Shown one piece after another: positions 1,949 through 8,574 of a stretch of DNA of 8,940 nt. Under the pieces are notes generated by a model. That model saw only the letters and a list, made by a program, of their open reading frames with translations. It made no database searches and was not told where the DNA came from. A program made the translations under genes and the position numbers. Source of the DNA: a virus (Duplodnaviria > Heunggongvirae > Uroviricota > Caudoviricetes); the IMG/VR virus record IMGVR_UViG_2700989521_000019. The stretch is one strand, 5' to 3'. How positions within the stretch are numbered: position 1 is the stretch's first letter; every line of letters starts with the position of its first letter.

Positions 1949-2273
1949 TTTCTGAACAGATAACCCGCTGCGCCGTTTGTGTGTGTGATCCCAAACATAA
2001 GCACGGGGATGATAGCCGCTATCAGGCTGGTGGGCAATGCAATCAGTCTGGTTCAGTTCGTTGCCATACCTGCAATGAGCGCTTTTCCCTGTACTCTTTA
2101 AGGAATTGCTCAAGGGCAAAAGCACATGGTGCGAATCTTTCTGATTCATGCTCTATCTTTCTGCGCCGTCTTTTCCGTGCCGGTGATAATGTTTTGGTCA
2201 ATTCTTTATCGGTCATTGTGTTGTCCTGCATAGCAATGCGCCGTAATACCTCACACCACGGCGCTGATAGTGA

Positions 2274-2453
2274 TTATTCTGATTCTTTGGCCTTGCGGCG
2301 CTGGCGGCGTTTGATCTCGCCTTCAAGTGCCGAAACGATAAATTGCCCTGTACTTTCGCCATCTTCCTTTAAATTTTCTACAGCATCAGCTATTGCGTGT
2401 GGTACTCGAGCCTCAAGCTTTTTGGATTTTGCATTAACTGCTTTTGTTGCCAT
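2274..2453 (-). CDS. Small ribbon-helix-helix-like DNA-binding protein (59 aa), candidate repressor of the divergent promoter region
   Basis: Chosen start is the internal ATG (MATKAVNAKSKKLEARVPHAIADAVENLKEDGESTGQFIVSALEGEIKRRQRRKAKESE) with GAGGAA SD 7 nt upstream; the longer 106-aa ORF upstream part is hydrophobic low-quality sequence. Pattern beta-strand (KLEARVP), helix (HAIADAVENL), helix (STGQFIVSALE) resembles CopG/Arc RHH fold; basic C-terminal tail. Family assignment is from pattern only. Confidence 0.55.
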   Translation of the reverse strand: MATKAVNAKSKKLEARVPHAIADAVENLKEDGESTGQFIVSALEGEIKRRQRRKAKESE

Positions 2454-2474
2454 ATCTGATTTCCTCGTTATTAG

Positions 2475-2554
2475 GTGGCTGACAGTATACACACAAGAAA
2501 ACGGAAAAACACTATTGACGTGGCTGACACCCGTTACTAATATAGTGGCTGACA
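2475..2554. promoter_or_regulatory. Divergent promoter/operator region: three direct repeats GTGGCTGACA (2475-2484, 2520-2529, 2545-2554) overlapping a sigma70-like plus-strand promoter (-35 TTGACG 2515-2520, 17-nt spacer, -10 TAATAT 2538-2543)
   Basis: Read directly. Repeat 2 abuts the -35 and repeat 3 abuts the -10/TSS of the rightward promoter; repeat 1 lies in the leader/promoter zone of the leftward RHH-like gene. Promoter hexamers are by consensus matching only. Confidence 0.5.
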
Positions 2555-2647
2555 CCTTTATCAAGGTAATCGATGAAAAGACAAAGCCCCGCAAGTGTCG
2601 TTACCACTCGCAGGGCTTCTAACCAACAACGTAAACTAGGAGCCGTT

Positions 2648-2845
2648 ATGGTTGCTGTAAATCATATACCACACCTTGTACACACACAAACGGCCTTTGT
2701 GTGGCGTTTTCTGGCACTGAGTGCCGGAGAATCTCAAATCATCCACGTAACCGCCTGGACGGAACGCGAAGCGCGTAACCGTTGCCCGTCCGGTTGTGTT
2801 GCTGTATTTGCCGCCCGTATTCGTCAGGAGGTGCGCCATGATTAA
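2648..2845 (+). CDS. Small protein (65 aa), first gene of rightward operon; possibly Icd-like (cell-division-inhibitor-like) family, assignment uncertain
   Basis: ATG 2648 with TAGGAG SD 7 nt upstream; MVAVNHIPHLVHTQTAFVWRFLALSAGESQIIHVTAWTEREARNRCPSGCVAVFAARIRQEVRHD. The FVWRFLAL motif recalls small Icd-like proteins annotated in P4-like elements; from memory, not verified. Confidence 0.5.
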   Translation: MVAVNHIPHLVHTQTAFVWRFLALSAGESQIIHVTAWTEREARNRCPSGCVAVFAARIRQEVRHD

Positions 2846-3050
2846 TCTGTCACTTACTGACCTTAACCGCATTCAGTTTCGTGAGAAATTCACAGGGCAG
2901 CTACTGGTCAATGTGGATAAAGGTCGCGTGGTGTGTAATTACCACTTACCAGATGAAGCAATTGTCGCCACAAGGGAATCATTACAGGAAATCACAAAAC
3001 GTGCCGGAATGATTAACACGAATATTCAGGGGATGCTTTATGCACAATAA
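2838..3050 (+). CDS. Hypothetical protein (70 aa)
   Basis: ATG 2838 overlaps the stop of the upstream gene (translational coupling); AGGAGG SD 6 nt upstream. MINLSLTDLNRIQFREKF... No recognised family. Confidence 0.55.
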   Translation: MINLSLTDLNRIQFREKFTGQLLVNVDKGRVVCNYHLPDEAIVATRESLQEITKRAGMINTNIQGMLYAQ

Positions 3051-3279
3051 AACCACACCGGACGCAGCCGCCGAAGCCATCAAAACGCTGATGCACGCGC
3101 TGATTGATATTTCTGTTATCGCGGACAGGGCACATAAGCACGCCACCAGCGAAACAGAATATGCCGGTGCTTTCGTTCCTCACTCACTGGCTGTCATGCA
3201 ATTTAGTGCTGATACGGCGCTGAATGAGGCCAAAGCTATCCTGATTGCTGATTGTGAAAATGGGGGGGGTTATGCGTGA
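3040..3279 (+). CDS. Hypothetical protein (79 aa)
   Basis: ATG 3040 overlaps upstream stop (3048-3050); CAGGGG SD upstream. MHNKTTPDAAAEAIKTLMHALIDISVIADRAH... No recognised family. Confidence 0.5.
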   Translation: MHNKTTPDAAAEAIKTLMHALIDISVIADRAHKHATSETEYAGAFVPHSLAVMQFSADTALNEAKAILIADCENGGGYA

Positions 3280-3505
3280 TGATCGTTTTAATTCCCTGAA
3301 ACAGGAATTTTCCGGCGTTCCTGATGATGCGGCTGATGCGCTTTCGTCAATGCCAGAACTTATTAGAGCGGCTTTTTTCTTACTTTCCACGAGAGAATAT
3401 AAATCAACGGGGCTTGATGTACTGAATATCGCCGCCGATTATGCGGAATATGTGGCAGAGGCGCGTTATAGAAGAAAATTTCCTGAGGATGTAAGCCATG
3501 CGTGA
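3272..3505 (+). CDS. Hypothetical protein (77 aa)
   Basis: ATG 3272 preceded by a GGGGGGGG run (3262-3269); overlaps the previous gene by 8 nt. MRDDRFNSLKQEFSGVPDDAADALSSMPELIRAAFFLL... Start chosen by RBS; the ORF track start at 3245 is an alternative. Confidence 0.5.
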   Translation: MRDDRFNSLKQEFSGVPDDAADALSSMPELIRAAFFLLSTREYKSTGLDVLNIAADYAEYVAEARYRRKFPEDVSHA

Positions 3506-3736: not shown

Positions 3737-4036
3737 ATGAAACTTAAATATTCTGGCTTAACTGCCAGTGGCAACACTCACCCTAAATTTACGCGCGGTG
3801 ATATTTACCGCGACCAGTACGGCGGCACGGTAATGATTAAGGACGTGGAAGAACGGCGCGTAACCTACCGCCGTGAAGGTTACGAATATGATTGCGTGAT
3901 GCCTGTTTATCAGTTCCGGCGTGATTTTTCTCTGGTACAGACCGCGCCGCATAACGTGCCCACCAGCAACGCCAGGGCACGGGCAAACATCCAGAAGCTG
4001 AAAACCATGGTTAACGGATTCAGGGGCAAGAAATGA
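3737..4036 (+). CDS. Hypothetical protein (99 aa)
   Basis: ATG 3737 with GGAGAA SD; the stop overlaps the start of the ATPase gene (ATGA-type overlap at 4033-4036). MKLKYSGLTASGNTHPKFTRGDIYRDQYGG... No recognised family. Confidence 0.55.
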   Translation: MKLKYSGLTASGNTHPKFTRGDIYRDQYGGTVMIKDVEERRVTYRREGYEYDCVMPVYQFRRDFSLVQTAPHNVPTSNARARANIQKLKTMVNGFRGKK

Positions 4037-5433
4037 AAAGCGCACCGAACTTAAAAAAACAGCCTTACGACAAGATGACCGAAGTCATTATTTTTGCGGG
4101 TAGTGATGCCTGGGCACATGCGAAACAGTGGCAGGAACAGGACGGGCGACTGGCTGGCGATAATGTGCCTCCCGTTGTGCTGGCTGATGATCAACTGGAT
4201 GAACTGGCAGACCTGAGAATCATCGACGAGGGGCGCTATTGTGTCCGGCTGTACAAGGCAGGCCACATCAGGCCATCAAATATTAATGCCATTGCGCACA
4301 AGCTGGCGGCGGCGGGTGTAACTGATGCGAATTATTACCCCGAAGGGATGCACAGCCATATGCGGGAGAACTGGCGCGAATACCTGGAACGGGTGCGCGG
4401 GAAAGAGCCGGCGGAAGAAAAAAACCACCAGCGAAAAACCACGCTACCGATGAGCGTTGGATCTACCGGATACGACACGCAACTGGATTACGTGGTTAAG
4501 GGGATTATTCCGGCGGTATCGCTATGCAGCATATACGGGGCTAGCGGGTCCTATAAATCATTCCTTGCCGGATCGTGGGCGTGCCATGTTGCCACTGGTC
4601 GCCAGTGGGGAGGCCGCAGGGTTGCACATGGTGCGGTTCTCTATGTGGTTGGTGAAGGCGGTATAGGTGTTCCGCGTCGTGTAAAAGCCTGGGAGGTTGT
4701 GCACGATGAGCAGGTGAAAAATCTGTATCTGGTAAACCGCCCCATCTTTCCGGCTGCCCCGCTTGATGTTGATGAAATGGTTATCGCTGCCCGTCAGGTG
4801 GAGCGGGAAACGGGTAAACCTGTACGCATGATTATTCTGGATACGCTGGCGCGTTGCTTTGGTGGGAATGATGAAAATGATTCCCGTGATATGGGGGCGT
4901 TTATCCGTGGTTGTGACGAACTGAAACGACGCACAGGGGCCACGGTGCTGGTGGTTCACCATTCCGGCAAGGATGAGACGAAAGGCGCGCGCGGTTCCAG
5001 TGCATTTCGTGCTTCGCTGGATGCTGAATACCGGATACGCAGGGAGGACGCAGGAAGCGAAGCGCTGGTTATCTCATGCACCAAAATGAAGGACGCGGAG
5101 GAACTCAAAGAAGCCGCATATGACTTACGCGTGGTGGAGCTTTTTACCGACGCTGACGGTGAATTAATCACGTCGCTGGTGGTGGTGGATGATCCGCGCC
5201 CTCCTGTTGAACTGGAGCGCATCGAGGAGGCAGGGAACAAGACGGAAAACCATACCGCGCTATGGGGGTGCATCCGTTCACGCACACAGAACGGCGACAA
5301 GTGCACGATCCCGCTGTTACGTGATGACATGAAAAAGCTGGGGTATGAAATGAAAAACTTCCGGCGCTGGCTGTACAAGCTGGAAAAAGATGGGGTTATT
5401 CGTATCGATGGGGATGATGTAGCGCCGCTATAA
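4033..5433 (+). CDS. RecA-fold / AAA-type ATPase, RepA- or DnaB-like replicative helicase-initiator of the element (466 aa); no recognisable primase domain
   Basis: Walker A-like GASGSYKSF (YGASGSYKSFLAGSW), Walker B-like hydrophobic strand plus acidic residue (VRMIILDTLARCFGGNDEND), downstream VLVVHHSGKDETKGARGSSAF resembling DnaB/RepA-type motifs. About 160-aa N-terminal domain of unassigned function. Long ORF with AGGGG SD. Confidence 0.85.
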   Translation: MKSAPNLKKQPYDKMTEVIIFAGSDAWAHAKQWQEQDGRLAGDNVPPVVLADDQLDELADLRIIDEGRYCVRLYKAGHIRPSNINAIAHKLAAAGVTDANYYPEGMHSHMRENWREYLERVRGKEPAEEKNHQRKTTLPMSVGSTGYDTQLDYVVKGIIPAVSLCSIYGASGSYKSFLAGSWACHVATGRQWGGRRVAHGAVLYVVGEGGIGVPRRVKAWEVVHDEQVKNLYLVNRPIFPAAPLDVDEMVIAARQVERETGKPVRMIILDTLARCFGGNDENDSRDMGAFIRGCDELKRRTGATVLVVHHSGKDETKGARGSSAFRASLDAEYRIRREDAGSEALVISCTKMKDAEELKEAAYDLRVVELFTDADGELITSLVVVDDPRPPVELERIEEAGNKTENHTALWGCIRSRTQNGDKCTIPLLRDDMKKLGYEMKNFRRWLYKLEKDGVIRIDGDDVAPL

Positions 5434-5622
5434 AAGTGAGGAGCAAAAGCGAGGGGGATAGAAAGAGGGCCAAAATTAGCCCGCTCTCCCTCACTTTTCG
5501 ACCTGTATACATCCTCAAAAGTGAGGGGTAAAAAAATACTTATGAAACACACACATAGAAAAACCGAAAATCCCAACTGCGACGAAGTGAGACGCTTGAA
5601 AAAGTGAGGCGAAAAAGTGAGA
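5433..5622. repeat. Iteron-like cluster: six copies of core AAGTGAG (consensus AAAGTGAGG) at 5433-5441, 5489-5497 (inverted), 5518-5526, 5585-5593, 5601-5609, 5614-5622, plus degenerate copies (AAAGCGAGG 5446-5454); candidate ori or operator array
   Basis: Read directly in the 200-bp intergenic region between the replicative ATPase gene and the ssb-containing operon. Confidence 0.55.
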
Positions 5623-5633
5623 GGTTGCGAGAA

Positions 5634-5885
5634 ATGACCCAAAAACGCAGAGACAGAACAGAGCCAAAATATAAAGCGTTAGACATGACTGAGCACACCT
5701 TAAAGGTGGCAATCAGAACGATAGACCGCCACACGCGGGAAGGATACGCGAAGGAACATCCCGACCTGATAAGCGCATTCATGACCACGGTGGCGGCAAA
5801 CTTTGCCACGCTGACAGAACGGGAGATTGCCGAAGCGGAACAGGTAACAACCATCAACGTTAAAACCGGAGAGGTGGAATTATGA
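5634..5885 (+). CDS. Hypothetical protein (83 aa); start ambiguous (GTG 5604, ATG 5634 or ATG 5685)
   Basis: ORF in frame with plausible GAGAGG SD before ATG 5634; stop overlaps the ssb-like start. MTQKRRDRTEPKYKALDMTEHTLKVAIRTIDRHTREGYAKEHPDLISAF... No recognised family. Confidence 0.45.
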   Translation: MTQKRRDRTEPKYKALDMTEHTLKVAIRTIDRHTREGYAKEHPDLISAFMTTVAANFATLTEREIAEAEQVTTINVKTGEVEL

Positions 5886-7208: not shown

Positions 7209-7463
7209 CAGACGCGCAATTATTGAACAAAACTGAGAAACGACATGAAAGCGTCATAAATCGCCATTTTAGATGATTACCGTGTCGTTTCTTTTTATTG
7301 TGTATCTATTTAAAAACAAATAGTTATGTTCGAGAAGTACCGACATGCTTTTTCCAGAAAAATTTTCATAAACAGATAAAAACCGCGAGGTCGCCGCCCC
7401 GTAACGGGCCATAATTCCAGGAAGGACCCGACGACACCAGACTATCAGAGCGATGGGGGCACA

Positions 7464-7745
7464 ATGACAGAAGCCGAACTACTGGGATTAATCCGCCGCG
7501 TTACCGGAATCAGCCAGCAGCATGACGAACAGGCCACGCAGCCGGACAGCGTGACCGCCGAAAATTACGCGCGTGTGGTTGCTGAGGTGATGCGCCGTGA
7601 TGGTATCCAGCTTAATGATGTGGATATGCGCAACATACGGATCCGCGTTCTTGAAATGCTGGCCTACAATCGCCGCGTGGCACTGTATCGGGAAACGGAG
7701 AAAATTACGTACCACTGGAAGAAGCCGGAGCGGTTACGGCGTTAA
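7464..7745 (+). CDS. Hypothetical protein (93 aa)
   Basis: ATG 7464 preceded by a GGGGG run; ORF with balanced composition (MTEAELLGLIRRVTGISQQHDEQATQPDSVTAENYARVVAEVMRRDGIQLNDVDMRNIRIRVLEMLAYNRRVALYRETEKITYHWKKPERLRR). No recognised family. Confidence 0.45.
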   Translation: MTEAELLGLIRRVTGISQQHDEQATQPDSVTAENYARVVAEVMRRDGIQLNDVDMRNIRIRVLEMLAYNRRVALYRETEKITYHWKKPERLRR

Positions 7746-7750
7746 CGAGT

Positions 7751-7800
7751 AGCGACATACCGTGACGGAGAGTGACAACCAGTGACACGCCGTGACAAAA
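7751..7800. repeat. Five tandem 10-bp units carrying core GTGAC/GCGAC (agcgacatac cgtgacggag agtgacaacc agtgacacgc cgtgacaaaa); helically phased repeat array
   Basis: Read directly, immediately after the stop of the 7464-7745 ORF; second 10-bp-phased array in the window (compare 1261-1310). Confidence 0.45.
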
Positions 7801-8574
7801 GACGGTTTAACCGTTAATTAAAAATTGACGGGATTTTGTGCTTTCCGGACGACGTGGCCAACGCCATTTTTTAGCGAAAAGTTCTGATTAAGGTCATTGT
7901 CTGAATGGTCATAATGACCACTCCTACAAAACAGGTAAAGCCCACCAGCCTGATTAACAGTTAACCGGAAAAAAATCCGGTAGCCCCGTTATGGGGATCC
8001 CCATATCAACATTAACGCCCCTCATGAATTAGCGCGCTTCCCCCTGGAAAGATGACCCGCCTGTATATTTCTTGTGTCTATTTGTTCCACGTTGTTTCAT
8101 ACAGTGCACCGAACGGTGTAGTCACTGGTGTAGTCATTTTGCGATTTATGGCACTTTTTGTAGTGAAAACCCCGTTTTTTCTTCCTTTGCTAATAATAAT
8201 GTCTTTTTCGCTCCGTCATCATAACGAAAATCAAACCGCTCAGGTAAAGAAGTGAAAATATTTTGAGTTAATTCTTAAGCTATGATACAAATCAGGCGTG
8301 TTCAACTACCGAGGACAATTATCATCCGCGATGACGAGAAGCAACACTGCGGATAATTGTAATATTATGGACAATTTGTTCAGGACCTTATTTTCAACAT
8401 TTACCCATCTTCGTACCTCATCCACTATCTTGCTCGTAGGTGAGCAGCACTGGCGCAACGCGCTTTAGTCCTTTCTTCTGCCTAAGCTTGCCCTATGCGC
8501 GGGGCTTGACCACTTTACTTTGATTTCGCTGAATTAAGCGAAAATTAAAATAATTCTCTTGCAGGAGAAGGACA

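Follow-up and report, generated by a model that had tools for sequence, protein, structure and literature searches.

A probable regulatory module of a ribbon-helix-helix gene, three dyad operators and an antisense RNA in a Gram-negative phage-inducible chromosomal island

We analyzed an 8,940-nucleotide stretch of viral DNA (IMG/VR record IMGVR_UViG_2700989521_000019, Caudoviricetes; hereafter the window), in which a leftward gene for a 59-amino-acid (aa) ribbon-helix-helix (RHH) protein faces away from a rightward operon across three copies of a short sequence. The window is a Gram-negative phage-inducible chromosomal island (PICI), with an integrase (1–1218), AlpA (1585–1773), an AAA_25/RepA helicase (4033–5433), SSB and PerC, all transcribed rightward. 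The operon opens at a promoter, P_R, with an icd-like gene that is followed by tightly packed rightward genes, including those for the RepA-type helicase, SSB and PerC; a leftward promoter, P_L, is predicted ahead of the RHH gene (Table 1). From the letters of the window alone, an earlier note had proposed that the RHH-like protein binds the repeats as a repressor and so switches the replication operon.

The 10-bp sequence GTGGCTGACA occurs exactly three times on the plus strand, at 2475–2484, 2520–2529 and 2545–2554, that is, at spacings of 45 and 25 bp, and all other matches in the window carry two mismatches and occur at chance frequency. In 454 of 2000 dinucleotide shuffles (23%) some 10-mer reached at least three copies across the whole window, which is not rare, and we dropped this statistic in favor of a test for clustering within 100 bp. 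Because 10-mers with three scattered copies are common in shuffles, clustering is the significant part of the repeat signal: none of 3000 dinucleotide-preserving shuffles placed any 10-mer three times, without overlap, inside 100 bp. The three perfect repeats described in the earlier note are therefore upheld. They are not simple direct repeats, however; the full sites are 11-bp pseudo-palindromes of the form GTG-N5-CAC, most likely each occupied by one dimer.

We then placed these sites, which we call O1 to O3, on the two promoters. The near-consensus rightward TTGACG/TAATAT promoter of the earlier note is present, but repeats 2 and 3 do not bracket it; repeat 2 lies in its spacer and repeat 3 on its start, which is predicted at ~2550. 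The TTGAC(G) element, and the TAnnnT element right before O3, are kept in related loci. Repeat 1 had been assigned to the leader of the RHH gene; it does lie ahead of that gene, but on a conserved −10-like TATACT (2489..2484) and on the predicted start of the leftward transcript. The distance from O1 to the RHH ATG is 22 nt in the window and stays at 21–22 nt in related loci, and the CAGTATAC motif adjoining O1 is conserved across operator classes (see below). We also observed that CACC, the right arm of O3, pairs together with the adjoining TT(G) to a (C)AAGGT(G) farther downstream (window 2551–2567). The small hairpin so formed recurs in many loci where the P_R transcript begins, and it could be a 5′ stabilizer or an extra half-site.

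Table 1. Genes, sites and RNA elements discussed in the text, with coordinates in the window unless another record is named (ORF, open reading frame)
Feature	Position	Strand	Sequence, basis and remarks
Small ORF downstream of RHH gene	2043..2216	minus	57 aa from MTDK (likely start 2216); 62 aa from first ATG 2231
RHH gene (YlcI/YnfO family), proposed repressor	2274..2453	minus	59 aa from ATG; conserved ORF
RHH-gene ribosome-binding sequence	2461..2466	minus	GAGGAA, 7 nt ahead of ATG; read from sequence
Operator O1	2475..2485		GTGGCTGACAG; imperfect site; overlaps −10 and predicted start of leftward promoter; autoregulation proposed
P_L, leftward promoter, predicted −10	2484..2489	minus	TATACT; predicted start ~2477; inferred
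P_R, rightward promoter	2515..2543	plus	−35 TTGACG 2515–2520, spacer 17 nt, −10 TAATAT 2538–2543; consensus promoter scan
Operator O2	2520..2530		GTGGCTGACAC; fills P_R spacer, first base is last base of −35
Operator O3	2545..2555		GTGGCTGACAC; begins 2 nt past −10, spans predicted P_R start
Candidate cis-antisense RNA, ~80 nt	2574..2654	minus	Complementary to icd-like ribosome-binding site and start codon; ends predicted
Intrinsic terminator of antisense RNA	2574..2619	minus	15-bp stem 2619..2583, U-rich tract 2582..2574; terminator scan
Near-invariant TCTAACCA	2618..2625	plus	Between terminator hairpin and ribosome-site hairpin
icd-like ribosome-binding sequence	2638–2642	plus	AGGAG
icd-like gene, first of P_R operon	2648..2845	plus	NCBIfam NF033153, E 5e-18; PGAP annotation in identical 14EC001 region
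Antisense promoter, predicted	2661..2689	minus	−35 TTGTGT 2689..2684, spacer 17 nt, −10 TATGAT 2666..2661; within first icd-like codons
EcCICFT073 module (record L183)	7243–7860		RHH gene 7474–7653, minus; operators 7685, 7720, 7743
O157:H7 cassette (record L180, F8797)	3073–3343		RHH gene 3248..3075

The RHH-like gene proposed earlier proved to be a conserved 59-aa ORF of the YlcI/YnfO family. Its product matches NCBIfam NF041551 (score 60.6 bits, curated cut-off 30, E 1.1e-16), and its homologues carry the NCBI name YlcI/YnfO. The protein models as an RHH fold, with the beta-alpha-alpha arrangement of ~45 residues and the G-x-S/T/N turn that opens helix B; G32, S34 and T35 are each at least 90% conserved, and E33 is invariant. 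Polar and hydrophobic residues alternate along the N-terminal strand, K12-L13-E14-A15-R16-V17-P18, in which R16 and P18 are at least 90% conserved. We take this strand to align with Q9/N11/R13-W-P of Arc, positions 12, 14 and 16 being presumably equivalent to Arc Q9, N11 and R13. Residues 12 and 14 and the invariant R16 are the outward-facing positions of the strand. No Pfam family matched the protein at E up to 0.1, Arc/Mnt PF03869 included. A tblastn search with the protein against 50,697 phage genomes gave no match, indicating that it belongs to satellites and prophage remnants, not to sequenced phages.

The earlier note had called for a search of other genomes for such repeats beside homologous small genes. 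We scanned genome, viral and metagenome collections and obtained 176 loci, ~135 of them with an intact RHH gene and upstream region. A common layout across Enterobacterales is shared by these ~135 loci, which come from E. coli, Salmonella, Xenorhabdus, Pectobacterium, Serratia, Rouxiella and Klebsiella. Three site positions are kept: ~21 nt upstream of the RHH ATG beside CAGTATAC, right after TTGAC(G), and right after TAnnnT. The GTG/CAC arms are nearly constant; at least 10 classes of the 5-bp core can be told apart, with one core per locus and all sites of a locus alike. We observed that each operator class pairs with one motif of the beta-strand (residues 11–15), without exceptions: KKLEA with GTGGCTGACAC, QALKA with GTGGGCCACAC, KR[FI]D[VA] with GTGTC[CG][GC]ACAC, KKIDV with GTGTC[TA]GACAC, QT[LIVF]AA with GTGTT[CG]AACAC, QK[LV]QA with GTGGA[GC]TCCAC, QQLNA with GTGCGATTCAC, LQVSV with GTGGTGTTCAC, QMTTV with GTGTATTTCAC and QKMSA with CTGGGTGCCAG.

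The changes in the core are mirrored over the dyad (TC/GA, TT/AA, GA/TC), and inversion can affect either the central base pair or the site as a whole. We reasoned that mirrored and invertible changes are the signature of a two-fold symmetric dimer, which linkage or gene conversion would not explain. The protein columns most informative on operator class are 14 and 12, alternate positions of the beta-strand. Together, the dyads, the mirrored cores and columns 12 and 14 indirectly support a dimer whose paired strands would read a pseudo-symmetric site. AlpA, integrase and RepA proteins at least 95% identical to those of the window occur with three operator classes, and within class A the identity of AlpA ranges over 44–98% and that of the Icd-like protein over 36–100%. 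The operator class tracks residues 12 and 14 of the RHH protein and not AlpA, integrase, RepA or the Icd-like protein.

Some loci depart from the common layout. Two Xenorhabdus loci (L006 and L044) lack exactly the 25-bp O3 unit, and in a further locus (L011) O1 is fused to the right end of O3 and P_R is lost altogether; all three look like products of recombination between operator copies. In class QTVAA (L095, L141 and ~45 gut-metagenome loci) there is no site at the P_L start, and an extra GTGTTCAACAC abuts the P_R −35 upstream, at the place where the P_L −35 would lie. Loci L053 and L115 have four sites.

Within the region covered by the earlier note lies a further conserved element, absent from that note: a candidate cis-antisense RNA over the start of the icd-like gene. 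The RNA is predicted to fold into two hairpins, with an anti-Shine-Dalgarno sequence in the loop of the 5′ hairpin. Across 29 sequences, 96.3% of cells are paired and 14 of the 20 pairs show compensatory changes, values that none of 500 shuffles reached; the consensus fold is −20.5 kcal/mol. The terminator hairpin folds with −36.6 kcal/mol on the minus strand (z −4.46) versus −26.7 on the plus strand (z −1.36), and the minus-strand hairpin is the more stable one in all 40 of 40 non-redundant loci (mean −23.7 vs −17.4 kcal/mol). Where the minus strand has G-U pairs the plus strand has C-A mismatches, and the A-run matching the U-rich tract is at least 90% conserved. A leader hairpin on the plus strand was also considered and was rejected because of the more stable minus-strand fold and the covariation.

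The predicted antisense promoter has a −35 that is weak and variable. In all 20 of 20 non-redundant sequence types, a minus-strand TAnnnT lies at a distance of 43–46 nt from TCTAACCA, whether its offset in the coding sequence is +7 or +13. This constancy at either offset from the ATG ties the antisense −10 to the terminator rather than to the frame of the gene. The ACCA of TCTAACCA pairs with UGG at the start codon (helix 1, columns 3–6 with 34–37); we looked for complementarity of TCTAACCA to another site in the window and found none. Searches of Rfam gave no match in the window at E up to 1, and C4, isrK and P4-CI RNAs were not found at the gathering score in 20 related loci. The lack of a C4 or isrK match agrees with the remark in the earlier note that the switch is not of the P4 CI-RNA type. 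The only Rfam match among the 20 related loci was to the int-alpA RNA (RF02996, 60.9 bits), at 347–413 of a Pectobacterium brasiliense island (L014); it is not in the window.

We also found the module in EcCICFT073, the prototype of the Gram-negative PICIs, for which, as for EcCIEDL933, helper-phage induction and transfer have been published. EcCICFT073 carries a class B module, with the YlcI/YnfO protein WP_000190587.1, the small downstream ORF, and the operators GTGGGGGACAG, GTGGGCCACAC and GTGGGCCACAC. The two genes bear the later-assigned locus tags C_RS30120 and C_RS30125 and are not mentioned in the paper characterizing the island. Published work terms these islands unidirectional and leaves their repressor unclear, and later papers merely list YlcI/YnfO as an accessory "prophage-associated protein." Our search of the open-access literature found no description of the module.

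A cassette exchange was evident in islands of the EcCIEDL933 type from O157:H7. Their flanks are 98–99% identical to the window, and 2272–2612 is replaced by a different, 57-aa Arc-like RHH gene (phrog_228, E 1.5e-6; Pfam Arc, E 0.038) together with two CATGGTAATTACC palindromes. This block replacement with the flanks intact indicates that repressor gene, operators and hairpin move as a unit, like the immunity regions of lambdoid phages.

Taken together, these data make it likely that the region 2274–2689 is a regulatory ("immunity") module in which an RHH repressor, three dyads and an antisense RNA keep the island silent. As far as computation tests it, the repressor-operator switch on the replication operon that the earlier note had proposed gains support from the conserved layout, the co-variation and the position of P_R at the head of the early/replication operon of a PICI. 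The RHH protein would be made from the weak P_L and most likely binds as one dimer per 11-bp operator. Occupation of O2 in the spacer and of O3 at the start site would exclude RNA polymerase from P_R, so that the icd-like and replication genes are off and the island is quiescent; occupation of the imperfect O1 would cover the −10 and start of P_L and limit RHH synthesis. Recognition may be Arc-like, with residues 12, 14 and 16 in the major groove, R16 reading the GTG/CAC arms and 12 and 14 reading the core. As a second layer, a constitutive antisense RNA would start just inside the icd-like gene and end at the terminator right of O3, and its anti-Shine-Dalgarno loop would block translation of leaky P_R transcripts. 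For derepression we can only speculate: alpA transcription heads toward the RHH gene on the opposite strand, and both read-through and an anti-repressor are possible.

Of the other explanations, the one that survives best, itself improbable, is that the RHH protein activates P_R, or acts mainly as an activator of its own promoter, as Mnt does at Pmnt, instead of repressing. A site in the spacer and a site on the start of a near-consensus sigma-70 promoter are at classical repressing positions, and class A has no site at an activating position upstream of the −35. Marginally less credible is a type II antitoxin with the small downstream ORF as its toxin; the dyads would then serve only autoregulation of this pair, with any control of P_R a side effect. 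The core promoter of P_R, not the RHH gene's own promoter, carries two of the three sites, the 59-aa protein lacks a C-terminal toxin-binding extension, and the downstream ORF matches no toxin family and is absent from many loci.

We regard it as very unlikely that AlpA or a further protein of the island (the Icd-like protein, the small ORF product or the integrase) is what binds the repeats, with the RHH gene as a bystander. The earlier note had named AlpA as a second candidate binder, and AlpA is indeed the one regulator of E. coli PICIs with experimental support; it activates genes that lie downstream of its own, and it belongs to the Xis/AlpA proteins, which bind repeated sites. The near-identical AlpA proteins that accompany three operator classes, and the divergent ones that share a single class, exclude it as the determinant of specificity, and the same holds for the integrase, RepA and Icd-like proteins. 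The small downstream ORF is missing in many loci of unchanged architecture. Between the window and the O157:H7 island, whose cassettes differ, only 2 of its 62 residues change. The least plausible alternative of all is that a host factor binds the repeats, or that they are a non-functional local duplication or gene conversion, as the imperfect 25-bp duplication that contains sites 2 and 3 and the loss of one unit by recombination between repeats in L006, L044 and L011 might suggest. A single host factor is excluded by E. coli alone, where at least four operator classes are found side by side. In addition, the sites are conserved but the intervening sequence is not, the changes in the sites are dyad-symmetric, and the positions of the sites relative to −35 and −10 are fixed.

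Several observations weigh against control by an RHH repressor. P_L has no good −35 and was not picked up by the consensus promoter scan. The spacings between O2 and O3 (22–37 bp) show no helical phasing, and cooperative binding is not obvious from them. A PDB sequence search with the 59-aa protein returned no significant match (two chance hits, E ~1–2), a profile search returned none, and Foldseek against the PDB gave weak E-values only. The YlcI/YnfO family is uncharacterized in the literature, and DNA binding, the sign of regulation and the transcript ends are predictions here. In addition, the RHH gene and its operators are adjacent, so that linkage alone gives co-inheritance; because of this, our argument rests on the concerted, dyad-symmetric change of the sites and on the location of the variable residues. 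Finally, in the published EcCICFT073 model the activator AlpA is all that is required, and its over-expression is sufficient for induction; because over-expressed AlpA suffices, any repression must be overridable by AlpA.

Among known systems, immI of P22, with the Mnt and Arc RHH repressors, Pant and the sar antisense RNA, is the closest in logic to the module of the window. The two differ in several respects: the window protein has no Pfam Arc match and belongs to a satellite, not a phage; P22 has one 17–21-bp operator bound by a tetramer, whereas the window has three 11-bp dyads 22–45 bp apart; and P22 immI controls an antirepressor, whereas the window module would control the icd-like and replication genes. 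The Stl/Rpr systems of Staphylococcus aureus pathogenicity islands (SaPIs) and other Gram-positive PICIs resemble the module in their position between the integrase side and the replication operon, in their divergent promoters, and in the proposed silencing until a helper phage arrives. Stl proteins, however, are large helix-turn-helix proteins with sensor domains that are bound by phage proteins, whereas the 59-aa RHH protein has no obvious sensor domain, and Gram-negative islands, unlike the Stl systems, additionally need AlpA. In immI of P1/P7 (c4 RNA, icd, ant) and in the P4 CI RNA system, as in the window, an icd-type gene opens the operon, and its ribosome site is the target, in the window the predicted target, of a small antisense RNA; c4 and CI, however, arise by processing of the sense transcript and work in trans, on short target boxes. 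Omega of pSM19035, which is grouped with CopG and ParG, binds contiguous 7-bp heptads cooperatively, in contrast to the non-contiguous 11-bp dyads described here.

E. coli K-12 has two proteins of the same NCBIfam family, YlcI of the DLP12 prophage and YnfO of the Qin prophage, after which the family is named. YlcI matches DUF3950, and its gene is divergent from the neighbor gene. At the ylcI locus (L181, 16252–16834), part of a lambdoid late region, the neighbor is nohD, read divergently across the cos region; neither an icd-like gene nor a GTG-N5-CAC triplet is present, and the architecture is not shared. Upstream of ylcI there is an unrelated inverted repeat, ATCAATTAATACG / CGTCATAATTGAT.

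The small ORF downstream of the RHH gene is probably the second gene of a leftward operon and co-transcribed with it. The predicted product is basic, its ERFAPCAF motif is kept in 76 loci, and a stop interrupts only 1 of 76 tblastn hits. It has no Pfam or NCBIfam match, and its only PHROG match is phrog_21027 (function unknown). Loci not of the E. coli type lack it; those of Xenorhabdus, Pectobacterium and Serratia nonetheless retain the RHH gene and operators. A 263-aa plus-strand ORF at 1831–2622, antisense to the RHH gene, which PGAP annotates in strain 14EC001 instead of the RHH gene, was judged spurious, since it has no family match and crosses both promoters; that its frame in O157:H7 runs on in frame into the icd-like gene is further evidence against it.

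For 96% of its length the window matches an island of E. coli 042 with 99.7% identity; the match is in three pieces distributed over 11.7 kb (NC_017626.1, 1831607–1843358), and the window's island appears to be a version of that island that is ~2.8 kb shorter and ends beside mdtJ. In strain 14EC001 genes for capsid, protease and portal come after the identical region. Part of a 701-bp query around the module (window 2200–2900) is present in 1429 of the 5426 complete genomes of E. coli that were searched. A match to at least 80% of the query was obtained in only 146, and the partial matches often comprise the icd-like side alone. Two other repeats were observed. AAAAGTGAGG occurs three times (5433, 5518 and 5601; 83–85 bp apart) within 17-nt imperfect repeats at 5432–5643, directly after the RepA helicase gene, and these repeats are probably the iterons of a replication origin. 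CGGCTTTTTT also occurs three times, far apart (3370, 6596 and 6960), possibly as terminator tails between gene blocks. Further operator copies elsewhere in the islands were not found.

Gram-negative PICIs occur widely, transferring genes and interfering with phages. As a tentative extension, which we hold with clearly less confidence than the module itself, the YlcI/YnfO-type RHH protein may be the missing master repressor of these islands and the counterpart of SaPI Stl. The operator classes might then be immunity groups, and helper phages might induce the islands directly or via AlpA read-through antisense to the RHH gene, defeating both repressor and antisense RNA. The module in EcCICFT073 itself is a concrete and easily testable candidate for island silencing. 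The at least 10 matched repressor/operator pairs, with a recognition code readable at residues 12 and 14, could serve as orthogonal parts. A role in island silencing would give the YlcI/YnfO (DUF3950-related) family its first function, and, if true, it would replace the "activator only, unidirectional" picture of Gram-negative PICIs.

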